Positions 9,582 through 24,544 are shown, numbered from the stretch's first letter. The stretch is 35,820 nt of DNA from Deltaproteobacteria bacterium (GCA_019310195.1 JAFDET010000014.1:1-35820); one strand, 5' to 3'. Numbers and translations: made by a program. The notes: a model not told the origin generated them from the sequence alone.

Positions 9582-9740
9582 CTGCATAGAGCGACGTTCC
9601 TGCACAACTGCACCCAGTACCACTCCTGCATTCAGGGACGTTCCTGCGTAACTGCATGCGGTGCCACCACTAGCAGGACTGGTACTGGGTGCAGTTGTGC
9701 AGGAACGTCCCTCAGTGCAGGACTGGCACTTTGTGCAGGT
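9582..9740. repeat. Palindromic intergenic repeat element, copy 1 (REPIN/MITE-like, 44-bp unit)
   Basis: AACTGCA recurs at 9606 and 9650 (44-bp period). 9593-9629 and 9673-9709 are reverse complements at 36/37 positions. Homologous to 24364-24494. Confidence 0.9.
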
Positions 9741-11089
9741 CAGCGGCGGCGGGGGGAGTAGCTGCCGGCTTCGGGCTGGCGGCGGCCGCACCAGGGGCAG
9801 AAGTGCCAGGAGCTCTTCGACACCGGCCAGCGACAGCGGGCGCAGCGATCCGGCAGGTCGGGATGGCTCCAGGGGCGGCCGGGCTTGCGCTTGCAGACGG
9901 GGCAGTAGCGCATGAATACCTGGAGCTCGCCGGCGCAGCCGCGGCGCGCGCAGTGGCGCACCGCCTTGGAGTCGCGGCGAAGACGCCGGCCGTTCGATTG
10001 GAAGCGGCCCTTGTAGCACCACGGGCAGTAGCTCCACTCGGGCCGCACGCCCCGCTCGCACTCGGGGCACACCATCGGGTAGCTCGAGACGTCGAGGAAC
10101 GACTGCTCGGCGGCCCCGCACCACGGACAGTGGCGCATCGCCTCGGCGATCGGCCCGCTGCACTGCCGGCACTGGTACCGCATGCCCAGGGTGCGCCCGT
10201 GGGCACGGCCGAAGAGCTGGGCCTGGATGGCCAGGGGCGAGGGAGCCTCGCGCTTGCGGCGCCGGCGGCGAGGGCGCACGGGCGCCGCGTCCGCCTCCAC
10301 CCTGCGGAACGCGGCCTCCAGGGCCTCGTGAAAGACCACGGCGTCCGGGTAGCGGCGCCGCGGCTGGAACTCCATGGCCTTGCGCAGCACCTTGCGCACG
10401 GGCTCGGGAGCCTTGAAACGGAAGCGGGCGTAGCCTTCGGGCGGCCACTCGAAGGGCCAGCCGGGACGGACCCCGGTCAACAGCTCGTAGGCGATGAGGC
10501 CCAGGCTGAAGACGTCGGAGCTCATGGAGGGCTTGCCGTAGGCCTGCTCGGGCGCGATGAAGCCCAGCGTCCCGGCCTCGGTGTAGGTGGCGGTGGAGCT
10601 CTTGGCGAATCGCGACACGCCGAAGTCGCACAACGCCGCGCGGCCGTCGGGCAGAATCAGGATGTTCTCGGGCTTCACGTCCCGGTGCAGGATGCGCTGG
10701 CGATGAGCGTGGGCCAGCCCGGCGGCGGCGTCGCGGATCACGCCGAGCGCCACCTTCGCCGAACGGCGCGCCTTCGGGTACGCGTCCAGGTGGGTCGTAG
10801 CCAGATCCGCAGCCATCACGAAGCGGCCGTCGATCCAGTCGGCGTTGCGAGCGCCGACGATGTTGGGGTGCTCCAGGCGCGCGGCGATCCGGGCCTCGTG
10901 CTCGACCTCGGCCCGGCCCCACTCGGCCACGACGCCGGCGTGCGCCACCTTCAGCGCCACCGGCCGTCGCTCGACGAGGTCGGTGGCCTTCCAGACGTCT
11001 GCGAAGCTTCCGCTGCCGATGCGCGACTCGAGCCGGTACTTGCCCAGCAATGAGCCCCGTCGCAGGGCACTCTTCTCTCGTTGAACCAA
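9740..11089 (-). CDS. Hanks-type Ser/Thr protein kinase with four C-terminal zinc-ribbon repeats
   Basis: IGSGSFADVW, VALK, HRDVKPEN, DFG, APE and DVFSLG motifs. Tail has eight Cys pairs (CRQC/CPWC, CPEC/CPWC, CARRGC/CPVC, CARC/CPWC). TTG start with GGAGAGG upstream. Confidence 0.9.
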   Translation of the reverse strand: MVQREKSALRRGSLLGKYRLESRIGSGSFADVWKATDLVERRPVALKVAHAGVVAEWGRAEVEHEARIAARLEHPNIVGARNADWIDGRFVMAADLATTHLDAYPKARRSAKVALGVIRDAAAGLAHAHRQRILHRDVKPENILILPDGRAALCDFGVSRFAKSSTATYTEAGTLGFIAPEQAYGKPSMSSDVFSLGLIAYELLTGVRPGWPFEWPPEGYARFRFKAPEPVRKVLRKAMEFQPRRRYPDAVVFHEALEAAFRRVEADAAPVRPRRRRRKREAPSPLAIQAQLFGRAHGRTLGMRYQCRQCSGPIAEAMRHCPWCGAAEQSFLDVSSYPMVCPECERGVRPEWSYCPWCYKGRFQSNGRRLRRDSKAVRHCARRGCAGELQVFMRYCPVCKRKPGRPWSHPDLPDRCARCRWPVSKSSWHFCPWCGRRQPEAGSYSPRRR

Positions 11090-11142
11090 CCTGGCCTCTC
11101 CGTATCGAGAGGTACCCGAGAAAGCCTACCCCGCACAACCCC

Positions 11143-12040
11143 TCAGGCCGGGTTCACCTCCAGGTATTGCACGCTGAAGAGGCGCTCCGGATCGGTCCAG
11201 CACGCGACCACGCTCCAGCCGGCGCCCTGCGCCAGGTCGGCGAACGGGCCGAGCCGGTACTTGTACGAGTTCTCGGTGTGGATGCGCTCGCCCGCGGACA
11301 GCGACACCTGCCGCTCGGCGATCCGAACGGTCTGGTCCCGGACGCTCTCCAGGTGCATCTCGATGCGGCCCTCGTCCTCGTCGTAGAAGGCGACGTGGCG
11401 GAAGTCGTCGGGTCGAAAATCGGCCCCCAGCTCGCGGTTGGCCCGCACCAGCAGGTTCTTGTTGAAGGCCTCGGTGACCCCCGCTGCGTCGTTGTAGGCC
11501 CTTTCCAGGGTCTCGCGATCCTTCTGCAGATCGACGCCCAGCAGCAGACCGCCGCCCTCACCCGAGATCTCGGCCACGTGCTCCAGGAAGGAGGCCGCCT
11601 GGGGCCGCGCCGGTGTAGTCGGCACAGACCGGCAGGACCTCCAGGCGGGGATAGAGCCCGTGGAGGATTGTCGCGGTCCGCTCGAGCTGCTCCCGGGAGA
11701 TGTCAATGGGCACGTAACCAGCGGGCGCGTCGAGGTGGTCCAGCAGGATGCGGGACTTGAGGCTGGCGCCACTGCCGTACTCCACCAACAGACAGCGCTC
11801 GCCCAGACATCCCGCCATCTCCTCGGCGTGGGTGCGGGTGATCTCCAGCTCGGTGCGCGTGGGGTAGTACTCCGGCGTCTCGCAGATGCGCTCGAAGAGC
11901 TCGGCGCCGCGCTCATCGTAGAAGTACTTGGAAGGAATCGACTTGGGATGCTGCTGGAGTCCGCGCAGCAGGTCGTCCCGGAAGGACGCCTGGGGCGATC
12001 CGAAGTCCAGCACTTCGGGAACCGAGGCCCGCTGATACAT
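11143..12040 (-). pseudogene. egtD: L-histidine N-alpha-methyltransferase EgtD, interrupted by an internal deletion plus frameshift (or assembly error)
   Basis: N-half KSIPSKYFYDERG, EYYPTRTE, LVEYGSG ... VCADYT is in one frame. C-half PQAASFL ... GVDLQKD, AYNDAAGVTEAFNKNLL, RIEMHL, IHTENSYKY is in another. The junction is at 11605-11611 and the conserved F(P/L)GSTIGN segment is absent. Confidence 0.85.
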
Positions 12041-12048
12041 GGGGGCCG

Positions 12049-12099
12049 AGTATAGCCAGCGTGGCGTTTCGTCCAGGCAGGGGCGCTTGCGGCTATGCT
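12049..12099. promoter_or_regulatory. Divergent promoter pair with -10 hexamers TATACT (minus, 12049-12054) and TATGCT (plus, 12094-12099)
   Basis: The hexamers lie 8 nt from the egtD ATG and 6 nt from ATG 12106. Neither gene has an SD. Confidence 0.5.
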
Positions 12100-12105
12100 T
12101 GGCCA

Positions 12106-12795
12106 ATGCGTCCGCTGGTGGGAGTGGCCGCCGGCGTTTACGGAAACGCCACGGGCACGTCGCGCATCGAACTCGGGCTGGATTACACCCGCGCGCTGGA
12201 GGCGTCGGGAGCGGTGCCAGTGGTGCTGCCGATCCAGGCCGACCCCGCTGACCTCGTCCAGCGCATCGCGGGCCTGGTGGTTCCCGGCGGGCCGGATTTC
12301 GTCCCGACCACGCCCTACCCCGCCGGAGTCGAGTTCGACGCCGCCCCGCCGAAACAGCTGGCCTTCGACACCGCACTGATCCAGGCGGCGCTCGAGCGCG
12401 GCACATCGTTCCTGGGCATCTGCTGGGGCATGCAGCTTCTGGCACGCGCGCTGGGCGGGTCGCTCCACCACCATCTGCCCGTGGACGTGCCGAGCGCCCG
12501 GCCGCACAAGACCGCCTCCGGCGATCTGGAGCACGGCCTGCGCGTGGAGCCCGGCACGCGTCTGGCCGCGCTGCTGGGACCCGACGCGGATCGCGTGAAC
12601 AGCCGCCATCATCAGGCGGTGGCCGACCCGGGACCGGCCCTGCGCATCAGTGCCCGCGCCGACGACGGCGTGGTCGAGGCCCTCGAACGCCCGGGTGCGC
12701 CCTTCTGCGTGGGCGTGCAGTGGCACCCGGAGCGCATGGACGCCCCCCACCGCCGCGCGCTCTTCGGCGGCTTCGTCGCGGCCTGTCGGGACTGA
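12106..12795 (+). CDS. Gamma-glutamyl-gamma-aminobutyrate hydrolase family (peptidase C26, class I glutamine amidotransferase)
   Basis: MRPLVGV start, GGPD, nucleophile elbow GICWGMQ, VNSRHHQAV and GVQWHPE. Confidence 0.88.
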   Translation: MRPLVGVAAGVYGNATGTSRIELGLDYTRALEASGAVPVVLPIQADPADLVQRIAGLVVPGGPDFVPTTPYPAGVEFDAAPPKQLAFDTALIQAALERGTSFLGICWGMQLLARALGGSLHHHLPVDVPSARPHKTASGDLEHGLRVEPGTRLAALLGPDADRVNSRHHQAVADPGPALRISARADDGVVEALERPGAPFCVGVQWHPERMDAPHRRALFGGFVAACRD

Positions 12796-12825
12796 ACGAG
12801 GTACCCTGCCGCGCCCGGAGGTTGC

Positions 12826-14895
12826 ATGAGGACGCGTTGGATCCCGATTCTGTGCCTGGCCCTGGCCTGCGGTGCGCCGGCGCCGGAGATCCCCTCCTCC
12901 GGCCAGACCTACGACGTGCACATCCTGCGCGACAGCTGGGGCGTGCCGCACATCTTCGGCGCCCGCGACGCCGACGTGGCCTTCGGCCTGGCCTGGGCCC
13001 ACGCCGAGGACGACTTCGCCACGATCCAGGAGTCGCTCTTGATGTCGCGGGGCTCGCTGGCGGCGGTCCGGGGGCGCGACGCGGCGCGCTACGACTTCCT
13101 GTCGCGCTGGCTGCGGGTGCAGGACGTGGCCCGTGCGGCTTGGGAACGCGACCTCTCCCCCGAAGCACGCGCGGTGGCCGAGGCCTACGCCGACGGCATC
13201 AACCGCTTCGGACAGCACCACCCGGACCAGGTGCTGCCGGGTGTGTTGCCCGTCAGCGGCGTCGACCTGGCGGCCGGGTTCGTGTTCCAGAACGCGGCGT
13301 TCGTGGCGGGCGGCGAGCTGGCGCGCCTGCTGGACGAGGACCGCGCGCTGGAGGAGGAGAAGCCGGAGCCGCCCCGAGGCTCGAACTCGTTCGCCGTGGC
13401 TCCCAAACGCTCCGCGGACGGGCGCACGCGCCTGGCGGTCAACTCCCATCAGCCCTGGACCGGCCCGGTGGCGTGGTACGAGGCGCACCTGCGCAGCGAC
13501 GAGGGCTGGGAGGCCGTGGGCGGCGTCTTCCCGGGATCGCCCGTGATTCTGCACGGCCACAACCGCCACCTGGGCTGGGCCCACACCGTCAATCAGCCCG
13601 ACCTGGTGGACGTGTTCCGGCTGGAGATCCACCCGGAGGATCCGAATCGCTACCGCTTCGATGGGGAGTGGCGCGAGCTGGAGCAGCGGAAGATCCCGAT
13701 CCGCGTGCGCCTCTGGGGCCCGTTCCACTGGACCGTGCAGCGCGAGGTGCTGGCGTCGGTGCATGGCCCGGTAGTGCGCCGCAAGGACGGCACCTTCGCG
13801 GTGCGCTTTGCCGGGATCGGCGAGGGCGGCATGCTCGAGCAGATCTACCGCATGAACCGCGCGCAGAACCTGGAGGAGTTCCGCGCGGCCATGCGCCTGC
13901 ATCGCATCGCCATGTTCAACACGCTCTACGCCGATGAGGCGGGCAACGTCTGGTACGTCTACAACGCCAAGCTTCCCCTGCGCGCCGACGGCCACGACTG
14001 GAGCGGCGTGGTGGACGGCAGCACCTCCGAAACCCTGTGGAGCGAGTACCTGCCCTTCGACGCGCTGCCCCAGGTGACCAACCCGGCGTCGGGCTTCGCC
14101 CAGAACTGCAACAGCACGCCCTACCGGACCACGGACGGGACCGACAACCCGCGCCAGGACGAGTTCGATCCGAAGCTGGGCGTCGAGACACACATGACCA
14201 ACCGGGCCTTGCGTGCCCTGGAACTCTTCGGTCCCGACGCCTCGATTACCCGCGACGAGTTCTTCGCGTACAAGTTCGACATGGCCTACTCCCGGGAGTC
14301 GGACGAAGCCGGCTGGGTGCGGCAGCTCCTGGAGGCCGGCCCGCCCGAGGACCCGGAGCTGCGCGAGGCCTGGGACCGGATCGCAGCCTGGGACCTGGGC
14401 GCCGAGCCCACCAACCGCGGCACAGCCATCGGCATCCTGACCCTCCTACCCTACTGGAACGCCCTGCGCCGCGGGCTGGAGCCGCCCTCGCTGCTGGAGC
14501 TTCTGGGCCGGGCGGCCGACACGCTGCGCGAGCATCACGGCCGGCTCGACCCTCCCTGGGAACAGGTCAACCGGCTGCGCCGGGGCGACCTGGATCTGGG
14601 CGTGGGAGGCGGCCCGGACATCCTGCACGCGGTCTACGCCGAGCCCACCGACGACGGCCGAATGCGTGGTGTGGCCGGGGACTCCTACGTGCTGATGGTG
14701 GAGTGGGGACCCCGCGGCGTCCGCTCGCGCAGCATCCACCAGTTCGGCAGCGCCACCCTGGACGCCACCTCGCCCCACTACGCGGACCAGGCGGTGCTCT
14801 TCGCCAAGCGCATGACCAAGCCGGTCTGGCTCGACGAGCAGGACGTGCGCGCCAACCTCATCCGCGAGTACGTCCCCGCCGGCGCCACTCCTTAG
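12826..14895 (+). CDS. Penicillin acylase family Ntn-hydrolase, probable lipoprotein
   Basis: Lipobox-like LALAC, RDSWGVPHI, beta-subunit start G|SNSFAVAP, NSHQPW, WAHTVN and QNCN. GGAGG RBS. Confidence 0.9.
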   Translation: MRTRWIPILCLALACGAPAPEIPSSGQTYDVHILRDSWGVPHIFGARDADVAFGLAWAHAEDDFATIQESLLMSRGSLAAVRGRDAARYDFLSRWLRVQDVARAAWERDLSPEARAVAEAYADGINRFGQHHPDQVLPGVLPVSGVDLAAGFVFQNAAFVAGGELARLLDEDRALEEEKPEPPRGSNSFAVAPKRSADGRTRLAVNSHQPWTGPVAWYEAHLRSDEGWEAVGGVFPGSPVILHGHNRHLGWAHTVNQPDLVDVFRLEIHPEDPNRYRFDGEWRELEQRKIPIRVRLWGPFHWTVQREVLASVHGPVVRRKDGTFAVRFAGIGEGGMLEQIYRMNRAQNLEEFRAAMRLHRIAMFNTLYADEAGNVWYVYNAKLPLRADGHDWSGVVDGSTSETLWSEYLPFDALPQVTNPASGFAQNCNSTPYRTTDGTDNPRQDEFDPKLGVETHMTNRALRALELFGPDASITRDEFFAYKFDMAYSRESDEAGWVRQLLEAGPPEDPELREAWDRIAAWDLGAEPTNRGTAIGILTLLPYWNALRRGLEPPSLLELLGRAADTLREHHGRLDPPWEQVNRLRRGDLDLGVGGGPDILHAVYAEPTDDGRMRGVAGDSYVLMVEWGPRGVRSRSIHQFGSATLDATSPHYADQAVLFAKRMTKPVWLDEQDVRANLIREYVPAGATP

Positions 14896-15764
14896 CTCCC
14901 GCGGAGCTCCTGGGTAGAGAGGCAGAAGCCCACGCCCTGGAGCCAGCAGGTGTCGTCGTGGACGTGCTCGTCGCGCCGCAGCGAGCGGACCTCGCGGACT
15001 CCGCCGCCTTCGAAGGCCCGGGCGATGCGCTTCTGCATCTCGGGATCCCGCCCCCCGAAGAGCGCCGGGATTGCAACCCCGTCGATGAAGCGGGCCTCGA
15101 ACCCTGCGCCATGCTTCACGAGTCGCAGCACCTGCCCTGCGTGGTCGCGGATCACGCGCGCGGTGACGCCGCCGGGAATCCGCGTTCCCGTGAGTGGAAG
15201 CACCAGTCGGCCGCCCACGTCCAGCGCATCCAGCCAGGAGTCCGGGGGATGCGTGACGCCGCCGCCCACCAGGATCGCGTCCAGCGGTCCTTCGAGCGGA
15301 TCGGTCCCGTCGCCGTGAACCACCTCCACCTGACGCACCCGGCGCAGGTTGCGGCGCGCCCGCTCGGCGAGTCGCGGCTCGAGCTCCAGCGCCCGCACGC
15401 GCCCCTCGCGCCCCACCAGCTCGGCCAGAATGGCCGTGTAGTAGCCGCTGCCGCAGCCCACCTGCACCACGCGGTCGCCGGCCTCCAGAGCCAGGGCGTC
15501 GATCATCTTCGCCACCAGGTAGGGCGAGCTGTTGTTGATGAAGCGCGAGACGTCCAACGCCAGGGAGCAATCCGCATAGACCTGGGCAGGATCCGCGTCG
15601 GGTGTGGAGTAGTAGCCGTCGATGCGAAACTCGAGCCAGGGACCTCGGTCCAGGAAGCGCTCGCGCGGCACGCGGGCAAAGGCCTCGCGAAGTCCCGGCG
15701 TGCGCAGCTCCAGCGCCTCCGCGAGCTCATCCGCGAACCGGCGGCGGACCTCGTCTAACCCCAC
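14892..15764 (-). CDS. Protein-L-isoaspartate O-methyltransferase family protein with C-terminal extension
   Basis: AFARVPRERF, INNSSP, VGCGSGYYTAILAELVG, GDG and GGRLVLP motifs. GTG 15764 chosen, with TAGACT 7 nt upstream. Confidence 0.82.
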   Translation of the reverse strand: MGLDEVRRRFADELAEALELRTPGLREAFARVPRERFLDRGPWLEFRIDGYYSTPDADPAQVYADCSLALDVSRFINNSSPYLVAKMIDALALEAGDRVVQVGCGSGYYTAILAELVGREGRVRALELEPRLAERARRNLRRVRQVEVVHGDGTDPLEGPLDAILVGGGVTHPPDSWLDALDVGGRLVLPLTGTRIPGGVTARVIRDHAGQVLRLVKHGAGFEARFIDGVAIPALFGGRDPEMQKRIARAFEGGGVREVRSLRRDEHVHDDTCWLQGVGFCLSTQELRGS

Positions 15765-15832
15765 GCGGGTGAGTCTATGCGGTGGAGAGCGATGGTGCAG
15801 GTACAATCCAGCCTCGCTCGTCAGGGGGAAGC

Positions 15833-16723
15833 ATGGGAGAGGATCGGGACCGCCGGGCACTCGGGCTGCTCGGCGCGGGTGCGGCGCTGGGAATCGCGCT
15901 GGCCGCATGGGGCCTCGCCGGCTCCGGCGACGCGGTGGGCGGACTGCCGGAGGGCGCGATCGCCGTCGTGAACCAGCAGCCTCTGTCGGCCGAGGCCTTC
16001 GAGCGCTTCGCCGCGGCGGTGGCCGGCGAACGACGCAGCCAGCTGGGCGCCGACGAGCGCCGGCGGCTGCTGGAGCGCATGATCGACGAGGAGCTGCTCT
16101 TCCAGCGCGGACTGGAGCTGGGCCTGGCCCGGCACGAGCCCACCGCCCGCCGCTCGATCGTGTCCGCGCTGATCGCCAGCATCGCCAGCGATGCCGAGGC
16201 CGATGAGCCCGACGAGGCGGCGCTACGCGCCTTTCACACCGACTCCCGCGAGCGATTCACGCGGCCCGGGCGCCTGTCGGTGGAGGTGGCCTTCGTGTCC
16301 GCCCGCGGCCGCGCGGAGAACGAGAGCTACGAGCGCGCTTCGGAGATCGCGCGTCGAGCCAGGGCCGGCGAGCCGCTGCCCGACGTAGCCTCCGCCCTGG
16401 GCGACGTCCCGACGGCCCCACTGCCGGCCGGGCTGCTGCCGGTGGAGACCCTGCGCCAGTACCTGGGGCCCACCGCAGCCGTGGCGGCGGAACGCCTGGA
16501 GGCCGGCGAGGTGAGCGATCCGATCCGGGGCGTCGGGGGCTACCACGTGGTGCGGCTGGTGGAGCGGACCGAGGGCGCCGTGGCGCCCTTCGACGAGGTC
16601 CGCAACCAGGTCCGCGCCGAGTACCTGCGCTCGCTGGGCGAGCGCGCACTGGCCCGCGCCATCGACGACCTGCGCGCGGACTCCACGATCCGGATCGACG
16701 ATGCGAGGCTGGACGCGCCATGA
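15833..16723 (+). CDS. Membrane-anchored PpiC/SurA-type foldase (rotamase-like)
   Basis: N-terminal hydrophobic helix, AVVNQQPL, LERMIDEELLFQRGLELGL and GEVSDPI...GYHVVRL motifs. Confidence 0.78.
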   Translation: MGEDRDRRALGLLGAGAALGIALAAWGLAGSGDAVGGLPEGAIAVVNQQPLSAEAFERFAAAVAGERRSQLGADERRRLLERMIDEELLFQRGLELGLARHEPTARRSIVSALIASIASDAEADEPDEAALRAFHTDSRERFTRPGRLSVEVAFVSARGRAENESYERASEIARRARAGEPLPDVASALGDVPTAPLPAGLLPVETLRQYLGPTAAVAAERLEAGEVSDPIRGVGGYHVVRLVERTEGAVAPFDEVRNQVRAEYLRSLGERALARAIDDLRADSTIRIDDARLDAP

Positions 16724-17979
16724 CGCGAACGCTGGCGCTGGCTGCGCTGGCGTCCCTGGCCCTGGGACTGCCTGGAGCGGCACTCGCCCACGGCCGTTCC
16801 ACGTCCATGTCGTCCTGGGACATCCGCGACGCAGAGCGGCCCTCGGCGCGCGTGCGCGTGCAGGCGACCTGGCTGGACCTGCAGCGCGCGCTACCCGAGC
16901 TGGGCGGACTGACTCCCGGGGTTCTCGCCACACGGCCGGATCTGGCGGCGGCCGTGGACGCCTACCTGACCAGCCACTACCGGCTGCAGGTAAACGGCGT
17001 CGCGTGCCACCCGACCGCACCGCGTGCGTCGCCGGTGCCCGACGCCACCCACGTGGCTCGCCGCTGGCGCATCCAGTGCTCGCTCGCCGGTGAGCGCTCG
17101 GTGCGGGCCGACGGCTTCACCGAGGTGATGCCGGCCCACCTGCACCTGGCCCGCCTGCGCATCGACGAAGCGGCGCCCCTGGGACGCGTATTCGTGCTGG
17201 CCTCCCCGCTGCTCGAGCTGGACCGGGCCGAAGGCCGGGAGCTGCCCCGGGCCAGTTCGTTTCGGGAGTTCGTCCGCCTGGGGATCGAGCACATCGCCAC
17301 CGGCTGGGACCACCTGGCATTCCTGCTCGCGTTGCTTCTCGTCGGCGTGACCGTATGGGAGGTGGCCACGGTGGTGACCGGCTTCACCGTCGCCCACAGC
17401 CTGACCCTGGCACTGGGCGTGCTGGGCTGGGTGCGCCCCCAGGCCGGGGCGGTCGAGGCCCTGATCGGGCTCTCGATCGTGGTGGTGGCGCTGGAGAACA
17501 CGGCGCTGACGGTTTCGGCGCGGGGGCGGCGCACGATCCTGGTCGGCCTGGCGGCACTGTTCGCCGTGTCCACGGCCGGTGCGCTGGCGGGTCGGGTCGC
17601 GGTCCCCGCCTTGGCGCTGGCCGGCATCGGCCTCTTCTCGCTGTGCTACTTCGGCCTGCTGTCGCGGGTGGCCCGACCCTTCCGGCTGCGCTGGCTGCTG
17701 GCCTTCGTGTTCGGGCTGGTGCACGGCTTCGGCTTCGCGGGCATCCTCACCGAGATGGAGCTGCCGCCCAGCCGCCTGGCCCCGGCGCTGCTCGGCTTCA
17801 ACGTGGGTGTCGAGCTGGGCCAGCTCGCCATCGTCGCCGTGGCCTGGCCCTTCCTGCGCGCACTGCTCCGAGGGCCCCAGACCCGCCGACAGCTTGTCGT
17901 GCAGGCCGGCTCCGCGGCGGTGCTGGCGGCGGGGATCTTCTGGTTCGCGTCCCGCGCGCTGGCCGCCGGCCCCCCCTGA
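16720..17979 (+). CDS. HupE/UreJ family membrane protein with periplasmic N-terminal domain
   Basis: Signal peptide ending ALAH. GIEHIATGWDHLAF, FTVAHSLTL, FGLVHGFGFA and FNVGVELGQ motifs. ATGA overlap with the upstream gene. Confidence 0.88.
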   Translation: MTRTLALAALASLALGLPGAALAHGRSTSMSSWDIRDAERPSARVRVQATWLDLQRALPELGGLTPGVLATRPDLAAAVDAYLTSHYRLQVNGVACHPTAPRASPVPDATHVARRWRIQCSLAGERSVRADGFTEVMPAHLHLARLRIDEAAPLGRVFVLASPLLELDRAEGRELPRASSFREFVRLGIEHIATGWDHLAFLLALLLVGVTVWEVATVVTGFTVAHSLTLALGVLGWVRPQAGAVEALIGLSIVVVALENTALTVSARGRRTILVGLAALFAVSTAGALAGRVAVPALALAGIGLFSLCYFGLLSRVARPFRLRWLLAFVFGLVHGFGFAGILTEMELPPSRLAPALLGFNVGVELGQLAIVAVAWPFLRALLRGPQTRRQLVVQAGSAAVLAAGIFWFASRALAAGPP

Positions 17980-18032
17980 GACCGCCGCCCGGCTGAAGAC
18001 GCCTTCCGGTTCAGCCGAGGTACAATCTCGTG

Positions 18033-19523
18033 ATGTTCGAAGCAGCCGAGCTGGGGCGGAAGGTCTCCAAGAAGGAGTTCGAGCGCCTGGAGCCGGAGCT
18101 CCGCACGAAGCTCCTGGAGACCCAACGGGAGCTCGCCGAGGCGGGGATCCCGGTCATCCTGATCGTGTCGGGCGTGGAGGGCGCCGGCAAGGGCGAGGTG
18201 GTGAACCGCCTGCACGAGTGGCTCGACACCCGCGGCATCACGACCTCCGCCTTCTGGGACGAGACCGACGAGGAACGCGAGCACCCGACGGCGTGGCGCT
18301 TCTGGCGACACATGCCCGAGCGGGGCAAGATCGCCATCTTCTTCGGCTCCTGGTACAGCGGGCCCATCGTCGAGCGCGCCTTTGGGAAGCTCTCCAATGG
18401 CGAGTTCGAACTCGAGCTCGACCGCATCGCCTCCCTGGAGCGCATGCTCGCGGCCGATGGCGCGCTGATCCTGAAGCTCTGGTACCACCTGCCCAAGAAG
18501 GAGCAGAGCAAGCGCATCGAGGCCGATCGCAAGGAAGACGGACGCAACACCCTCGACGTCTCCCCCTTCACCAAGAAGTTCGCCAAGCGCTTCGACGAGT
18601 TCGCCGCCGTCTCGGAGCGCGCCATCCGCAGGACCGACACCGGCCAGTGCGCGTGGCGGGTGATCGAGTCCACCAACCGGCGCTACCGCGACCTGGCCAC
18701 GGGATTCATCATCCTGGATGCCCTGCGCAGGCGTCTGGACAGCGAGGCCGCAACGCCCGAGCCGCCGGAGTCCCACGACATCGAGATCCCGGACCTCGAA
18801 GCAGCCCGCCTCACGATCCTCGACCGCGTGGATCTGACAGAGCGCATCGAGCCGGAGGCGTACAGCCGCGAGCTCAAGTCCCTACAGTCCAGGCTCAACG
18901 CGCTCTCGTGGAAGGCCTGGGAGCGCAAGAAGACCTGCGTGGCCCTCTTCGAGGGCTGGGACGCCGCCGGCAAAGGCGGCGCCATCCGCCGCGTGAACCG
19001 CGCCCTGGACGCCCGTCTCTACCGCGTCGTGCAGATCGCTGCGCCCACCGACGAGGAGCGGGCCCATCACTACCTGTGGCGCTTCTGGCGCGGCCTGCCG
19101 CGGGCAGGCCACATCACCCTCTACGACCGCTCCTGGTACGGTCGCGTGATGGTCGAGCGCGTCGAGGGGCTGGCCCGCGAGGAAGCCTGGCGTCGCTCGT
19201 ATCGGGAGATCAACGCCTTCGAGGAGCAGCTCTGCGACCACGGCATCACGCTGCTCAAGTTCTGGATGCACATCAGCCCGGAAGAGCAGCTCCGGCGCTT
19301 CCGAGAGCGGGAGCAGACGCCCCACAAGGCCCACAAGATCACGGAAGAGGACTGGCGCAACCGCGAGAAGTGGGACGAGTACCGGGCCGCCGTGAACGAG
19401 ATGGTCGCCAAGACGAGCACCAGCGAAGCGCCGTGGACGCTGGTGGCGGGCGACGACAAGCGCTTGGCCCGGGTCCAGGTGCTGAGGACGTTCGTCGAGG
19501 CGTTCGAGAAGGCGCTGGCCTAG
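18033..19523 (+). CDS. pap: Polyphosphate:AMP phosphotransferase (two-domain PPK2)
   Basis: MFEAAELG start and two PPK2 domains (GVEGAGKG...GSWY; EGWDAAGKGG...DRSWYGRV, KITEEDWRNR). TACAAT lies 6 nt upstream of the ATG. Confidence 0.92.
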   Translation: MFEAAELGRKVSKKEFERLEPELRTKLLETQRELAEAGIPVILIVSGVEGAGKGEVVNRLHEWLDTRGITTSAFWDETDEEREHPTAWRFWRHMPERGKIAIFFGSWYSGPIVERAFGKLSNGEFELELDRIASLERMLAADGALILKLWYHLPKKEQSKRIEADRKEDGRNTLDVSPFTKKFAKRFDEFAAVSERAIRRTDTGQCAWRVIESTNRRYRDLATGFIILDALRRRLDSEAATPEPPESHDIEIPDLEAARLTILDRVDLTERIEPEAYSRELKSLQSRLNALSWKAWERKKTCVALFEGWDAAGKGGAIRRVNRALDARLYRVVQIAAPTDEERAHHYLWRFWRGLPRAGHITLYDRSWYGRVMVERVEGLAREEAWRRSYREINAFEEQLCDHGITLLKFWMHISPEEQLRRFREREQTPHKAHKITEEDWRNREKWDEYRAAVNEMVAKTSTSEAPWTLVAGDDKRLARVQVLRTFVEAFEKALA

Positions 19524-19762
19524 GCAGCCAGGGCGGCCGCGGTGTCCGCCGGCGCGTGGTGTGCCTCGAGACGCGTGCAGCGCTTGCAGCTCGGATAGGC
19601 CTCGACCCGGGTGAGGGGATCCCGGACCACGATGCGGTTGGCCATCCAGCGCTCCAGCCCGATCCCGCACAGAGTGTGCTCGGAGTCGCGCCGCACGTGA
19701 TTGCGACCGTTGGGGGCCAGGTTGCGGCGCGCCGGCCGCGTGAAGTGGGTGAACCAGTTCAT
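19520..19762 (-). CDS. Small (80 aa) hypothetical protein with H-x-LCG...CxxC putative zinc site
   Basis: Strong GC3 codon bias on the minus strand. Fills the gap after pap with a shared CTAG stop overlap. Motif NH...HTLCG...SCKRC. Confidence 0.65.
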   Translation of the reverse strand: MNWFTHFTRPARRNLAPNGRNHVRRDSEHTLCGIGLERWMANRIVVRDPLTRVEAYPSCKRCTRLEAHHAPADTAAALAA

Positions 19763-19907
19763 CACCCAATAAGTGCCCCCGAGCCGGGTTCAGGTGACGG
19801 AACGGGGCGATAAAGACGGAGCTGCGCGGCGAATGCCTGGCTCTGGCCCCCGCGGGGAGAGCTCTCGGCGGCGCCGAGCCCATCACGGGCTGCTGTAGAG
19901 TCGCGCC

Positions 19908-20999
19908 ATGCCTGCGCCGGAGCTGGTCGTCTACGGCTCGGAGGTCTCCTACTTCACCGGGAAGCTCGAGGCGTACCTGCGCTTCAAGGAGATCCCCTAC
20001 GAGCGCAGGCCCATGACCATGCGGCTCTTCCGCGGCGTCGTGCCCGAGAAGACCGGAGCCGCGCAGATGCCGGCGGTGGAGCTCCCCGACGGGCGCTGGA
20101 TGACCGACACCACGCCGATCATCGCCTGGCTCGAAACGCAGCACCCGGAGCCCGCGGTGATTCCCGAAGATCCGCTGCAGGCCTTCCTCAGCCGGCTGCT
20201 CGAGGACCATGCCGACGAGTGGCTGTGGCGCCCGGCCATGCACTACCGCTGGAGCTACGCCGACGGGCGCCGCTTGCTGGGCGAACGGATCGTGCGCGAG
20301 CTGATGACCGACATCCCCCTGCCCCATGCGCTCAAGGTGCTCGCGATCCGGCGCCGACAACGCGGGACGTACGTACGCAAGGACGGCGTCGACGCCCGGA
20401 CCCGCGACCACGTGGAAGCCTGCTACACGCGCACGTTGGATCAGCTCTCGGGGGTGCTGGAGCGCCGCCAATTCTTCTTGGGCGAGCGCCCGACGCTGGC
20501 CGACTTCGGATTCATGGGGCCCCTGTTCCGCCACTTCGCGCTGGACCCGACGCCGGCTCGCATCATGCGCAACCGCGCGCCCGCGGTGTGGGCATGGGTG
20601 GCCCGGGTCTGGAACGCGCGCGCCGGCCGGCTGCACGGCCCGCTGGTCGAGGGTGTTCCCCCGGACTGGGAGCCGATCCTGGACGAGATCGGCGCCACCC
20701 ACCTGGAGCATCTGTGTGCCAATGCCGAGGCCTGGAAGGAGGGCCGGCGCCGCTTCGACGTCACGATCCAGGGCGTGGGGTACCGGCGACTGCCCACCTC
20801 GCGCTACCGGGTCTGGTGTCTCGAGCGCCTGCGGGCGCACTTCGCGGCCCTGTCCGAGCCCGCGCAGGGCGCGGCGCGCACCCTGCTGGAGAAGCACGCC
20901 TGCTGGGAGCCGCTCTGGCGCGTCGAAGGCGCCGCGTCCGGCCTGGATCCGCAGGGCCGGGCGCCCTTCGCCCCGGGCGAACGCGTCTACCCGGCCTGA
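19908..20999 (+). CDS. Glutathione S-transferase family protein (long form)
   Basis: YGSEVSYFTGKLEAYLRFKEIPY, QMPAV, DTTPII, DEWLWRPAMHYRW and FFLGERPTLADFG motifs. Confidence 0.85.
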   Translation: MPAPELVVYGSEVSYFTGKLEAYLRFKEIPYERRPMTMRLFRGVVPEKTGAAQMPAVELPDGRWMTDTTPIIAWLETQHPEPAVIPEDPLQAFLSRLLEDHADEWLWRPAMHYRWSYADGRRLLGERIVRELMTDIPLPHALKVLAIRRRQRGTYVRKDGVDARTRDHVEACYTRTLDQLSGVLERRQFFLGERPTLADFGFMGPLFRHFALDPTPARIMRNRAPAVWAWVARVWNARAGRLHGPLVEGVPPDWEPILDEIGATHLEHLCANAEAWKEGRRRFDVTIQGVGYRRLPTSRYRVWCLERLRAHFAALSEPAQGAARTLLEKHACWEPLWRVEGAASGLDPQGRAPFAPGERVYPA

Positions 21000-21005
21000 G
21001 CCGGC

Positions 21006-21428
21006 TCAGCTTCGCTTGGGGCCCTTGCGCTGGGACTCGGTCGGCGGGTTCTTGGCCACCCAGCGGTGGTCCTCCACCAGCGTGAGCAGGTCGAAGGAGC
21101 TCAGCACCCCCACCACCTTCTGCTCATGGGTCACCACCACCCGATGGATCCCGTGGTTGCGCATGACCCGCGCTGCGATGCTCACGTCCTCGTACTTCGG
21201 CACCGTGTAGACCTTCTCGGTCATGATGCTGCTCACCGGCGCGCCGCCCTTCACGTCGCCCACCAGATCCGAGGCGGAGATGATGCCGACGGGCTGGCCG
21301 TCGCTGTCCACCACCGGCATGGCCCCGATCCTGTTGCGTTCCATCACGTGACGCACGTGGTCCACGGTGGTGTGCGGCTCTGTGGTGAGGACGGATTCCG
21401 TCATCAGCTCGTGGACCTTGACGTTCAT
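21006..21428 (-). CDS. CBS domain pair protein
   Basis: VHELMT...IGAMPVVD...VGIISASDL and VSSIMT...GIHRVVV...VGVLSSFDL. Alternative start at 21443. Confidence 0.9.
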   Translation of the reverse strand: MNVKVHELMTESVLTTEPHTTVDHVRHVMERNRIGAMPVVDSDGQPVGIISASDLVGDVKGGAPVSSIMTEKVYTVPKYEDVSIAARVMRNHGIHRVVVTHEQKVVGVLSSFDLLTLVEDHRWVAKNPPTESQRKGPKRS

Positions 21429-21455
21429 GGACCCCCGCGGCATCGCCGTCGTCGT

Positions 21456-22328
21456 TCATCCGCCCAGGGGCCGGATCACGCTCTCGGCGAAGTCTTCGAG
21501 ATAGGCGCGCTTCTGGTCCAGGCTCGACCCGGCGCCAACGCTGTACGTGAAAGGATAGGAGACGGTACCGGTCAAACCCCGATCCGCCAGCCGGGCCAGG
21601 CTGTCCGGCTCCGGCGGCGTGGTGAGCGGGACCAGGGCGTCGAAGGGCTCGTCTGCGCGACCGGCCGCGCGACGCAACCGCGCCAACTCCTCCAGGAACC
21701 CCGCCGCCTCGTCCGGGGTCTGGCCTGTGCCGATCCAGCCGTCGCCGCGTTGGGCGGCGCGGCGCAAGGCCGGCCGGCTGAGGCCACCCACCCAGAGGGG
21801 AACGGGCTTGGCGGGAGCCGGGCTCATCTGAAGCGTGTCGAAGGCGAAGTGCTCGCCGCGGTGCTCCACGGGTCGGCCCGTCCAGACCTTGCGCAACACG
21901 TCGATGGCCTCGTCGTAGCGGCGACCGCGGGTCTCGAACGGTACGCCCAGGGTCTCGAACTCCTCGCGGATCCAGCCGGCGCCGGTTCCCAGGACGACGC
22001 GATCGCCCGACAGCACGGCGGCGGTGCCCACGCTCTTCGCCACCTCCAGCGGGTGCCGCAGGGGGAGGATGTAGACCAGCGTGGCGAAGCGCAGCCGGTC
22101 GGTCGCCGCGGCCATGGCGCTGATGGTCGCCCACGGATCGGGGAACGGCGTGGCGCCGTCGAAGCCCGGGCGACCGTCCTCGGCGTAGGGGTAGCGGGAC
22201 TCCAGGCGGCCGGGAAAGAACAGGTGATCCGAGAGGAGCACGCCCTCGAAGCCCACCTCCTCGGCGATTCGGGCCGTCGGGATCAGCTGCTCCGGCTCCG
22301 TGAACGCGAGGGACTGCCAGAACTGCAT
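21456..22328 (-). CDS. LLM-class (probably F420-dependent, TIGR03619-like) oxidoreductase
   Basis: AEEVGF...LSDHL, YPY, PDPW, LPLRHP, GAGWIREEF, P(L)WVGG and GDGWIG motifs. Start at ATG 22328. Confidence 0.85.
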   Translation of the reverse strand: MQFWQSLAFTEPEQLIPTARIAEEVGFEGVLLSDHLFFPGRLESRYPYAEDGRPGFDGATPFPDPWATISAMAAATDRLRFATLVYILPLRHPLEVAKSVGTAAVLSGDRVVLGTGAGWIREEFETLGVPFETRGRRYDEAIDVLRKVWTGRPVEHRGEHFAFDTLQMSPAPAKPVPLWVGGLSRPALRRAAQRGDGWIGTGQTPDEAAGFLEELARLRRAAGRADEPFDALVPLTTPPEPDSLARLADRGLTGTVSYPFTYSVGAGSSLDQKRAYLEDFAESVIRPLGG

Positions 22329-22361
22329 GGCGGCTCCGTTGGCTTGCAGGCCGGGCCAGAT

Positions 22362-22375
22362 TAGAACATGTTCCA
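22362..22375. promoter_or_regulatory. KstR-consensus operator TAGAACATGTTCCA in the divergent LLM / PQQ-dehydrogenase intergenic region
   Basis: Exact match to TnnAACnnGTTnnA. Overlaps a minus-strand TAATCT -10 candidate. Lies about 2 kb upstream of a steroid catabolic operon. Confidence 0.55.
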
Positions 22376-22397
22376 CTTCTCTCACAGGGAAGGATCC

Positions 22398-24365
22398 ATG
22401 CGTCGACGGCTCGCGACTGCGGCGCTCGCAGCGCTCCTGCTTCCGGCGTGCGATCCGGCGCCGCCGCCCATCGACCTGTCCGGACCGCTGGCGGACTGGC
22501 CGGTCTACGGCGGCGACGAGCGGGGCGGACGCTGGTCCCCGCTCACCCAGATCAACCGCGACAACGTCGGGCACCTGGAGGTCGCCTGGCAGTACCACCA
22601 CGGCGACGTCTCCGACGGCAGCGACGGGTCGACGCGCACCTCGTTCAACGCCACGCCCATCGTCGTAGACGACACGCTCTACTTCTGCACGTCGTTCAAC
22701 CGGGTGATCGCGCTCGACGCCGCCAGCGGCGAAGAACGCTGGACCTTCGACCCGGGGCAGCGGACCACGCGCCTGCACGGCCCCTACCCCCGCGTGTGTC
22801 GGGGCGTGGATCACTGGCGCGACCCCGAGCGCCGACCGGGCCAGGCCTGCGCCGCACGGATCTTCACCGGGACCCTCGACTCCCAGCTGATCGCGCTGGA
22901 CGCCGCCACCGGGGAGCCGTGCGCGGACTTCGGCCGCGGCGGGCGCGTGCAGCTTCGCGAGGGCATCGGCGAGGCTCCGGACTGGGAGTACTACCCGACG
23001 TCGCCGCCGCTCACCGTACTGGACGTGGTGGTGGTGGGCGCGCTGGTGGCGGACAACGAGCGTGTGGACGCGCCGGCCGGCGTGGTGCGCGGCTTCGACG
23101 CGCGCAGCGGTGCGCTGCGCTGGGCCTGGGATCCGGTCCCGCCGGGATGGCAGGGACGGCCCACCACGGACGAGGGCGAGTTCACCGCTGGCACGCCCAA
23201 TGTGTGGGCCCCGCTCTCGGCGGATACGGAGCGCGGCCTGGTCTTCGTTCCCACCGGAAACGCCTCACCGGACCACTTCGGAGGCCAGCGCCAGGGTCTC
23301 GATCACTACTCCAGCGCCACGGTCGCGCTGGACGCGCGCACGGGAACGGTGGCGTGGCACTTCCCGACCGTGCACCACGACCTGTGGGACTACGACGTGC
23401 CGGCCCAGCCCACGCTGCTGGATTTCCGGCATCCCGACGGGCGAGTCGTGCCCGCGCTGGTCCAGCCCACCAAGATGGGTCTCTTCTTCCTGCTGAACCG
23501 GCTGAACGGCCGGCCGCTGTTCCCGATCGAAGAGCGGCCGGTGCCCCAGGGCGGCGTGCCGGGCGAAACCCTGTCGCCGACGCAGCCCTTCCCCACCCAC
23601 CTGCCGCCGCTGCACCCAACCACACTTACCCCCGACGACGCCTTCGGCTTCACGCCCTGGGACCGGGGCAAGTGCCGCGAGCGCATCGCGGAGCTGCGCT
23701 CCGAAGGCATCTACACGCCGCCCTCTGTCGAGGGCAGCGTCATCTGGCCGGGTCCGGCGGGGGGCCCCAACTGGGGCGGCATCTCCCTCGATCCGGAGCG
23801 GAACCTCGCCTACGTGAACCAGATGCGCCTGCCCCTGGTGGTCAAGCTGATCTCGCGCGAGGACTACGACGCGCTGCCCGAGAAGACGGTTACCTACCCC
23901 AACGACATGTACCCGATGCAGGGCACGCCCTACGCGGTGGTCCGCGGGCCGCTGCTCTCGCCGCTGGGCGCACCATGCAACCCGCCGCCGTGGGGAACCC
24001 TGACCGCGCTCGACCTGAGCGCCGGGAAGATCCTCTGGGAGGTGCCGCTGGGCAGCAGCCGCGACCAGGCGCCGTGGCCGATCTGGTGGCTCCAGGGCGA
24101 CGTGGGTGCACCCAACCTGGGCGGGTCCATCGTCACCGCCGGCGGCCTGCTCTTCATCGGCGCCACCACCGAGAAGACGTTCCGCGCCTTCGACGTGGAG
24201 AATGGCCGCGTGATCTGGAGCACGCGACTGCCCTACACGGCCAACGCAACCCCGCTCACCTACCGGCTGGACGCGCAGGGCCGGCAATTCGTGGTAATCG
24301 CCTCGGGCGGCCACGGCTGGTCAAAACCCGGCGACGCCCTGATCGCCTTCGCCCTCCCCAACTAA
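22398..24365 (+). CDS. PQQ-dependent dehydrogenase (glucose/quinate/shikimate family catalytic domain), probable lipoprotein
   Basis: Lipobox-like LLPAC. WPVYGG...RWSPLTQINRDNV, CRGV, HHDLWDYD, GGPNWGG and PCNPPPWG motifs. Lacks the N-terminal five-TM anchor of membrane-bound GDH. Confidence 0.9.
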   Translation: MRRRLATAALAALLLPACDPAPPPIDLSGPLADWPVYGGDERGGRWSPLTQINRDNVGHLEVAWQYHHGDVSDGSDGSTRTSFNATPIVVDDTLYFCTSFNRVIALDAASGEERWTFDPGQRTTRLHGPYPRVCRGVDHWRDPERRPGQACAARIFTGTLDSQLIALDAATGEPCADFGRGGRVQLREGIGEAPDWEYYPTSPPLTVLDVVVVGALVADNERVDAPAGVVRGFDARSGALRWAWDPVPPGWQGRPTTDEGEFTAGTPNVWAPLSADTERGLVFVPTGNASPDHFGGQRQGLDHYSSATVALDARTGTVAWHFPTVHHDLWDYDVPAQPTLLDFRHPDGRVVPALVQPTKMGLFFLLNRLNGRPLFPIEERPVPQGGVPGETLSPTQPFPTHLPPLHPTTLTPDDAFGFTPWDRGKCRERIAELRSEGIYTPPSVEGSVIWPGPAGGPNWGGISLDPERNLAYVNQMRLPLVVKLISREDYDALPEKTVTYPNDMYPMQGTPYAVVRGPLLSPLGAPCNPPPWGTLTALDLSAGKILWEVPLGSSRDQAPWPIWWLQGDVGAPNLGGSIVTAGGLLFIGATTEKTFRAFDVENGRVIWSTRLPYTANATPLTYRLDAQGRQFVVIASGGHGWSKPGDALIAFALPN

Positions 24366-24494
24366 CTGCACCCAGTACCAGACCTGCACGGAGGGACGTT
24401 CCTGCATAACTGCACTGGGGGTCAGTCCTACCCGCCAGGAGTGGTACTTGGTGCAGTTATGCAGGAACGTCCCTCCGTGCAGGTCTGGTACTTT
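24364..24494. repeat. Palindromic intergenic repeat element, copy 2
   Basis: Perfect 42-bp inverted repeat, 24374-24415 vs 24451-24492. 44-bp period (24364/24408). Arms match copy 1 at 45/51 and 53/59 by manual alignment. Confidence 0.92.
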
Positions 24495-24514: not shown

Positions 24515-24544
24515 TTTACAGAAACGATACGTATCGTTATTGTA
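24515..24544 (+). promoter_or_regulatory. Sigma70-type promoter of the ipd operon with overlapping palindromic operator
   Basis: TTTACA (24515-20), 17-bp spacer, TATTGT (24538-43). Perfect 16-bp palindrome AACGATACGTATCGTT (24523-38), extending to a 12/14 symmetric 28-mer at 24517-24544. Confidence 0.78.

Follow-up and report, generated by a model that had tools for sequence, protein, structure and literature searches.

The window analysed here is a stretch of 35,820 nucleotides (nt), contig C166 of the assembly GCA_019310195.1 (JAFDET010000014.1:1-35820), which we call G000. The assembly comprises 3.72 Mb on 424 contigs at 70.5% G+C, with 85.7% completeness and 6.4% contamination, and its host is an uncultured marine Myxococcota lineage. 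Two long palindromic elements are located next to genes in the window: copy A lies between a Ser/Thr kinase gene and an acetyl-CoA-synthetase-like gene, and copy B lies at the end of a pyrroloquinoline quinone (PQQ) dehydrogenase gene. An earlier note, made from the sequence of the window alone, had described two palindromic copies composed of 44-nt units at 9582–9740 and 24364–24494, and we found both at these positions. It had further suggested that they belong to a genome-wide family of the REPIN, BIME or miniature inverted-repeat transposable element (MITE) kind that is mobilised in trans. This suggestion is supported by the whole assembly, in which we counted 109 units at 49 loci and found a partner transposase on another contig.

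The similarity between the two copies had been given as 45 of 51 positions for the left arms and 53 of 59 for the right arms. A repeat finder reported the left arms as direct repeats of 51 nt with 88% identity; for the right arms BLAST gave the same count and the repeat finder a 62-nt repeat at 89%. Both copies also show the two hairpin registers that had been expected. Copy A can pair over 59 nt (80%), leaving 13 nt between the arms, or over 48 nt (92%), leaving 43 nt, and copy B over 42 nt without a mismatch (100%) or, weakly, over 35 nt (77%). Folding of the single-stranded DNA yielded -59.4 kcal/mol for copy A (z -9.98) and -60.9 kcal/mol for copy B (z -14.59), and in neither case was any of 200 shuffled sequences as stable. 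The description of the centres as unrelated spacers of 17 and 21 nt did not hold, since each opens with about 10 nt of the unit, namely a variable block followed by GTGCCA or GGGTCA. The true apex has the form sTCCT-N(2-8)-AGGAs (Table 1), and that of copy B recurs identically in three other G000 loci (C206, C345 and, as reverse complement, C359). We therefore dropped the idea that the spacers are captured foreign DNA, as they are mostly unit sequence plus a loop of 2–8 nt. A CRISPR-like reading was rejected because the elements are dispersed and lack a spacer array.

Table 1. Positions of the two palindromic elements, their parts and adjoining features in the window.
Feature	Position	Strand	Remarks
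Copy A, whole element	9582..9740	no strand	architecture ++-
Copy A, forward unit 1	9583..9622	+	weaker, nhmmer 36 bits; GCGAC replaces GGGAC
Copy A, forward unit 2	9627..9666	+	nhmmer
Copy A, apex	9667..9679	no strand	CCACTAGCAGGAC, 13 nt
Copy A, reverse unit	9680..9719	-	nhmmer
Copy A, outer partial unit	9720..9739	-	second half-repeat only
Ser/Thr kinase gene, 9740-11089 (-)	TGA stop 9740..9742	-	abuts copy A; stop also at the element-free site of G002
Acetyl-CoA-synthetase-like gene (context)	7671..9569	-	ATG about 12 nt from the other end of copy A
Copy B, whole element	24364..24494	no strand	architecture +-
PQQ-dehydrogenase gene, 22368-24365 (+)	TAA stop 24363..24365	+	within the terminal TAAC of copy B
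Copy B, outer partial unit	24366..24384	+	second half-repeat, CTGCACCCAGTACCAGACC
Copy B, forward unit	24385..24424	+	second half-repeat is the GGGTCA variant
Copy B, apex	24425..24441	no strand	GTCCTACCCGCCAGGAG, 17 nt
Copy B, reverse unit	24442..24481	-	nhmmer
Copy B, outer partial unit	24482..24494	-	tip degenerate
Promoter-like site TTTACA-17-TATTGT (context, outside the element)	24515..24543	+	host sequence also in G001, G002 and G003

A BLAST search of G000 with copies A and B identified 48 loci on 42 contigs, and an nhmmer profile refined in two rounds gave 109 unit hits at 49 loci, so that the count of copies across the genome, which the earlier note had proposed to make, is far above two. 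Forward (+) and reverse (-) units are combined to palindromes at 35 of the 49 loci, with the architectures +- (17), ++- (8), +-- (8) and ++-- (2). In the remaining 14 loci all units point the same way; among these loci are the two flanks of the transposase gene, three short fragments and two loci truncated at contig ends. The order reverse before forward (-+) occurs at none of the 49 loci, and at one of the 37 loci examined in a second genome, G003. A 21-nt core pattern, searched with one mismatch allowed, gave 104 matches in G000, and the reversed pattern gave 0. Altogether the elements account for 5,026 nt or 0.13% of the assembly, at a G+C content of 58.8%.

The unit consists of three modules, every one of which opens with CTGCA. 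Module 1 (CTGCA-nnnn-GGGACGTTC) and module 3 (CTGCA-nnnn-GTACCACTC, with variant ends GGGTCAGTC or GGGACACTC) have 18 nt each, and module 2 (CTGCATAA) has 8 nt. When 95 full units are compared, 29 of the 44 positions show the same base in at least 94 of them, including TGC, GGGACGTTCCTGC, AACTGC and CA. Twelve positions vary freely, which are two four-base blocks and a few single sites. An arm starts with the CTGCA of either the first or the third module and contains 1 to 2.5 tandem units. Forward units face reverse units across a loop of 2–8 nt, so that the single-stranded element amounts to one long hairpin. The length of the apex is 11–18 nt in 30 of the 35 palindromic loci, 34 nt in four, where an extra third module is present, and 56 nt in one. 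Within single units only one local pairing recurs, TGCA-nAAC-TGCA. All 95 units contain CGTC on the reverse strand as part of the invariant core, where it does not stand at the end of a small stem-loop. No match was obtained with Rfam at gathering thresholds for the whole window or by blastn of copy B against plasmid and phage records. A match to a catalogued IS end or REP family, which the earlier note had named as a refuting case, was not obtained in these collections; the arrangement as such has already been named in print, as TIRtron/TIRYT (see below). At two loci an exact inverted repeat is found outside both arms, with 50 nt at C310:1-220 (the contig start) and about 25 nt at C366:5740-5940. 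Such inverted flanks may mean that the palindromes are longer and include gene ends, or, at C310, that the assembly folded back on itself.

Regarding their genomic position, many of the elements lie directly at gene ends. With a loose open reading frame (ORF) call (at least 60 codons, G+C at third codon positions (GC3) at least 0.8) and stops counted from -45 to +31 nt relative to the first full unit, a stop codon was found at 53 of 82 outer ends. These stops cluster just ahead of the arm and at the internal TAA of the unit. A strict call (at least 150 codons, GC3 at least 0.85) still gave 31 of 82 outer ends, compared to 2.8% of 20,000 random positions. At the 35 palindromic loci an adjacent ORF stops at both ends in 15 cases, at one end in 13 and at neither end in 3; in the other 4 it stops at one end while the other flank is too short to judge. 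The stop codons at element ends (n=31) are TGA in 11, TAG in 10 and TAA in 10 cases, whereas 2,663 long high-GC3 ORFs from the whole genome use TGA in 51%, TAG in 45% and TAA in 3.8%. The excess of TAA (binomial p 1.3e-7) indicates that a good part of the adjacent stops is supplied by the element's own TAAC. For the window copies, the earlier note had proposed a stop codon at one end and a promoter at the other. The stop codon is present at both copies; a promoter-like site was found only by copy B and none beside copy A. A terminator-like T-run was found downstream of neither copy A nor copy B. As a separate observation, the TAG share of 45% is high for a genome of 70% G+C.

A search of G000 with the Pfam profile Y1_Tnp gave six places, all of them on contigs other than the window, in line with the earlier statement that the window contains no transposase. 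The best match (C317:10780-11106) falls into an ORF of 269 amino acids (aa), counted from its ATG, that is located between forward units at 10583-10666 (++) and reverse units at 11575-11658 (--). A gene of the REP-associated tyrosine transposase (RAYT) type flanked by the same unit, for which a search had been recommended, therefore exists in this genome, with its flanks in inverted orientation. The protein scores 40.3 bits with Y1_Tnp (cut-off 23). An alignment of 25 homologues shows no variation at either histidine of the HUH motif (H60, H62), in the block GHLFQNRF or at Y119, N123 and P124. A phmmer search against the sequences of the PDB gave 0 matches, which called for a profile search. 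The profile of the 25-homologue alignment detected 4ER8, the TnpA-REP transposase of Escherichia coli, with an E-value of 1e-6, and ISDra2 transposases with an E-value of about 0.65. A structure model from the single sequence was useless (predicted local distance difference test (pLDDT) 38) and was replaced by an alignment-based model with a pLDDT of 87.2. The top Foldseek match of this model was 4ER8 (E 1.8e-7, template modelling (TM) score 0.69 on the target), followed by the IS200, ISDra2 and IS608 transposases (E 1e-5 to 1e-4).

The last 94 residues show weak, sub-threshold matches to Bac_DnaA_C (17.4 bits, cut-off 31.5, E 0.0045) and HTH_23 (16.8 bits, cut-off 24.6, E 0.0062). This C-terminal tail is helical in the model, with pLDDT values of 63–89 per 10-residue block over residues 181–260 and 67 at the tip. 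In G000, at 85.7% completeness, the gene was found at one place with 100% identity, and the next best match was a 44% identical paralogue. Judged by its sequence and fold, the product of the C317 gene is a putative HUH/Y1 tyrosine transposase. It is of the REP-associated type, ends in a helix-turn-helix (HTH)-like tail and is encoded by a gene found in a single copy. The genes on both sides of this cassette extend into the repeats. The upstream ORF (L001 30-1337, G000:C317) enters the first unit by 31 nt and ends with a TGA in the variable block, so that its last residues are encoded by the repeat. The downstream cation-efflux gene has its start codon within the last unit of the cassette (GAATGCAGG).

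We then considered the distribution of repeat and transposase in related genomes. Among 41 of them the 21-nt core pattern was present 104 times in G000, 86 times in G003, which belongs to the same genus, and 5 times, as a variant, in G012. The transposase of G003 is 88% identical and lies at the syntenic site with inverted unit flanks as in G000; the inverted arms of G003 reach 103 nt with 79% complementarity. In the congeners G001 (90% complete) and G002 (83% complete) we found neither the core pattern nor a match to the C317 transposase. In a sample of 401 genomes of the phylum the core was found in five, which are G000, G314 (35 copies), G012 (5), G171 (1) and G147 (1). G314 belongs to another order of the same class, is 88% complete and holds its 35 core copies in short palindromes. 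It also contains a transposase remnant (C210:6147-6440, L144) of 98 residues, in which the first histidine of the HUH motif is replaced, with a core about 95 nt upstream. The elements of G314 and G012 have in common only the core GGGACGTTCCTGC-nTA(A/G)CTGC, and the 44-nt unit and its tandem repetition are therefore particular to the lineage of G000 and G003.

A second pair of repeat and transposase is present in G000. The 44% identical paralogue (C148:1341-2120) is flanked (L018 1256-1284 and 2234-2262) by a different palindromic repeat of 25 nt, AACTAA-n-GGGAC-w-GTCCC-n-TTAGTT. We counted 21 strict copies of this repeat, many of them paired at a distance of about 65 nt, and it is also located at C17, C49, C104, C113, C116 and C135. 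All of nine homologues in eight related genomes (88% identity in G003, 45–58% in the others) are flanked by inverted repeats of 25–103 nt, and a GGGAC or GGGGAC core is present in six of these nine sets of flanks.

Orthologous sites free of the element, which the earlier note had suggested to look for, were found in the two congeners G001 and G002. At the site of copy A the kinase and acetyl-CoA-synthetase-like genes are 1–2 nt apart in G001 and G002 and are separated by about 170 nt in G000 and G003. The site of copy B is occupied by the element in G003, by 761 nt of other sequence in G001 and by about 190 unrelated nt in G002. Here the last codons of the PQQ dehydrogenase gene differ in G001 and G002, and the TAA stop of G000 and G003 falls within the terminal TAAC of the element. 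The transposase cassette comprises about 1.1 kb in G000, compared to 53 nt at the G002 site. The cassette junction by itself would suggest that insertion occurs at TGCAG, but the site of copy A does not agree with this and we dropped the rule.

For an estimate of age we fetched 37 element loci of G003, of which 20 have both flanks on one G000 contig and thus represent comparable sites. Eighteen of these 20 sites are filled in both genomes, with flanks 91% identical. From 12 loci with equal architecture we took 25 orthologous unit pairs, in which the variable positions differ in 92 of 300 comparisons (31%) and the conserved positions in 4 of 625 (0.6%). The transposase genes of G000 and G003 show a proportion of synonymous differences (pS) of 0.40, a synonymous divergence (dS) of 0.58 and a ratio of nonsynonymous to synonymous divergence (dN/dS) of 0.118. 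The variable positions thus accumulate changes at roughly the synonymous rate, and at the conserved positions change is slower than at synonymous sites by a factor of about 60. The number of units differs at 6 of the 18 orthologous loci. The block GGGGTCAGTCCTACCCGCCAGGAG is identical in four G000 loci including copy B, and the G003 orthologues of copy B and C359 have other apexes, which points to an exchange between existing elements within the lineage. These comparisons show that the system of repeat and transposase is old and vertically inherited and that its sequence is strongly constrained. Two of the sites occupied by the element in G003 contain other hairpins in G000: a G-rich stem followed by TTTCTT at C207:42950-43069 and a pair of second-family repeats at C116:3535-3636. 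This suggests a replacement of one kind of gene-end hairpin by another.

About half of the words sampled from the region around copy B are present in seawater and marine-sediment metagenomes. Contigs from three unrelated public DNA runs bridge the left and the right junction of copy B. The summed contig depth on the element is 20–120 times that of its flanks, which fits a multi-copy repeat and is not to be taken as a copy number. A single RNA contig near copy B stops inside the upstream gene.

We interpret the palindromes as a REPIN-like family of non-coding repeats with its own REP-type Y1 transposase elsewhere in the genome, and assign this interpretation a probability of about 0.82. The transposase would recognise the invariant core of the unit on single-stranded DNA, like E. 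coli TnpA-REP on the REP hairpin. Cutting and rejoining by the enzyme would have spread and maintained the elements, and may also have altered unit numbers and exchanged central parts between existing copies. Several observations speak against a REPIN-like family with a dedicated transposase. Binding and cleavage are activities that we infer from homology, the solved E. coli complex and the conservation pattern. The score of the protein with the NCBIfam equivalog model of REP-associated tyrosine transposases (REP_Tyr_transpos) is 71.3 bits, below the cut-off of 80. No counterpart of the small hairpin bound by E. coli TnpA-REP is evident in the unit, and single arms or units show no extra folding compared to shuffled sequences (z -1.00, -0.21, -0.18 and -1.42), so that structure arises only at the level of the doublet. 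Of 95 full units, 2 contain the tag GTAG and none contains CTAC. The unit is thus not a classical REP, as the earlier note had already supposed for the GTAG type: it lacks the tag, and single units are not palindromic by themselves. A target-site duplication is readable at neither copy A nor the cassette junction. No insertion or excision newer than the split of G000 and G003 was seen at the 20 comparable sites, two of which hold other hairpins in G000. An element-skipping contig at copy B was not found among the metagenome contigs, which drop rare variants. At variable positions the arms of one element are 0.467 alike, compared to 0.506 +/- 0.029 for random partners; as the arms are no more alike than shuffled partners, they were not recently copied from one another, and the elements are old and not fresh copies.

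A narrower proposal concerns the mode of action, and we consider it doubtful: the transposase could be a site-specific single-strand recombinase acting at the CTGCA borders, which adds or removes 44-nt units and swaps the central module between resident elements and does not copy and paste whole elements. If true, the host would retain a recombinase system for its stop codons and gene-end hairpins, and maintenance at the level of modules would be a form of REP dynamics so far undescribed. A host role at gene ends is compatible with a REPIN-like family that has its own transposase and may explain the strength of the constraint; it becomes a rival only in its exclusive form. In that form, which we regard as unlikely, the family spread long ago and is now immobile, and the 29 invariant positions are kept for a host function of the hairpins at gene ends, which might be that of a terminator, of an mRNA 3' stabiliser or of a site for protein binding. 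The transposase would then be a bystander or have another role. The lack of any event seen since the species split would agree with this, as would the roughly 60-fold slower change of the conserved positions, the gene stops at element ends (53/82 loose, 31/82 strict, both ends at 15/35 loci) and G314, which retains 35 core copies and in which only a truncated transposase remnant was found. Against this exclusive form speaks that the transposase is under purifying selection (dN/dS 0.118) and has intact catalytic residues. Moreover, presence and absence of the repeat track the transposase gene within the genus, unit numbers and apexes have changed since the species split, and neither window copy is followed by the T-run expected of a terminator.

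Long inverted arms in intergenic regions could also belong to a MITE of a conventional DDE insertion sequence, with the arms acting as terminal inverted repeats that are read as double-stranded DNA. We consider this very improbable. The arms are tandem and modular and not termini of 15–30 nt, no target-site duplication is visible at the two compared junctions, and plasmid and phage records contain no match. The only gene found between such arms is the Y1 transposase, in an 86% complete assembly in which other transposase families were not searched systematically. There remains a negligible chance that assembly or binning created the palindromes as fold-back chimeras. A fragmented metagenome assembly of 424 contigs with 6.4% contamination could give rise to these, and the element at the start of C310 has 50 nt of exactly inverted flank on both sides. 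Yet 18 of 20 orthologous sites are filled in the independent genome G003, and both junctions of copy B are bridged in the three unrelated DNA runs. For the window copies A and B an artefact is refuted.

The comparisons with REPIN-RAYT and TIRtron/TIRYT systems refer to excerpts of the papers cited. The names TIRtron and TIRYT were given to RAYT-like genes that have long inverted repeats on both sides, which are not related to REPs; some of the repeats constitute families of moderate abundance, organised as dimers or clusters, and GGGGWSAS is found in many (Di Nocera, De Gregorio, Rocco 2013, PMC3733652). TIRYTs correspond to TnpA-REP subclass 2.1, whose proteins end in a Bac_DnaA_C, HTH_23 or HTH_28-like domain and whose genes were reported without REP-like sequences nearby (Quentin et al. 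2018, PMC6006769). This is the closest published class, next to REPIN-RAYT, and the G000 system fits it. Common to both are a Y1 transposase related to TnpA-REP, long inverted repeats without GTAG on either side of its gene, and the occurrence of the flanking repeat as a dispersed family in dimers or clusters. The C-terminal tail of the G000 protein may be a counterpart of the HTH domain, with weak sub-threshold matches to two of the three named profiles. GGGGWSAS fits the variant half-repeats GGGGTCAG and GGGGACAC of G000 as well as several flanking repeats in relatives, whereas the main G000 core GGGACGTT departs from it at the seventh position. Further differences are the arm, a three-module unit of 44 nt in tandem up to about 2.5 times, and the size of the family, which with about 50 loci and more than 100 units is large for the class. 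Unlike the subclass 2.1 genes described in the excerpts, which are without REP-like neighbours, the G000 gene has a large repeat family.

By architecture and inheritance, as far as these are covered by the excerpts, the G000 system is a REPIN-RAYT system (Bertels and Rainey 2011, PMC3116915; 10.1101/2022.05.22.493013; 10.1101/2021.07.10.451892). It shares the inverted doublet around a short spacer that forms a hairpin and, with the systems of Pseudomonas and Enterobacteria, the single-copy transposase flanked by the repeat (PMC3116915). Vertical inheritance and long persistence, the joint occurrence of repeat and gene, and two distinct repeat-transposase pairs in one genome are also common to both. 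In contrast to those systems, the repeat is not a self-palindromic REP of 20–40 nt with a GTAG tag, its arm of 1–2.5 tandem 44-nt units does not fold alone, and the host belongs to the Myxococcota. The unit likewise differs from the REPs of the GTAG superfamily in not being an imperfect palindrome with a stem of 5–13 bp. From the CGTC-tagged REP superfamily it differs in that its CGTC does not tag a small stem-loop and that a dedicated transposase is present.

With regard to the protein, no solved structure matched better, by sequence profile or by fold, than E. coli TnpA-REP (4ER8; Messing et al. 2012, PMC3479197), whose HUH histidines and the tyrosine of whose Y-x-x-x-N-P motif align with the C317 protein. 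Identity is however 18% over 155 columns, the C317 protein has 269 aa compared to 165 aa and an extra helical C-terminal domain, and the presumed G000 target shows no small GTAG-tagged stem-loop. The catalytic fold of the model is also that of IS200/IS605 transposases such as IS608 and ISDra2 (Foldseek E 1e-5 to 1e-4). The C317 gene is set apart from these by its single copy, by the far weaker profile match to solved IS200/IS605 proteins (E 0.65 compared to 1e-6) and by flanks that are symmetrical inverted arrays instead of distinct left-end and right-end hairpins. A literature search for REP-associated tyrosine transposases together with the term Myxococc gave no result; figures and supplements were outside its scope, and a CTGCA-type repeat may be tabulated there. 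The term is also absent from the text of three key papers on these systems, figures and supplements not being covered.

The family, with its unusual anatomy, thus belongs as a new member to a known class of miniature mobile DNA and does not represent a new kind of element. To the REPIN/RAYT and TIRtron systems it contributes a well-documented example from uncultured marine Myxococcota, and it indicates that a large repeat family can belong to a TnpA-REP that ends in an HTH-like tail. Twenty-nine bases stand out as invariant against the freely varying positions and are candidates for a role in binding or cleavage. For genome annotation it matters that these repeats break contigs, supply stop codons and can sit inside tightly coupled operons.

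One further palindrome was noticed in the window beside copy B. A perfect 16-bp palindrome, AACGATACGTATCGTT, at 24523-24538 overlaps the promoter-like site upstream of a CoA-transferase gene and is kept in G001 and G003 and partly in G002. From its sequence it looks like a candidate operator for a dimeric regulator.

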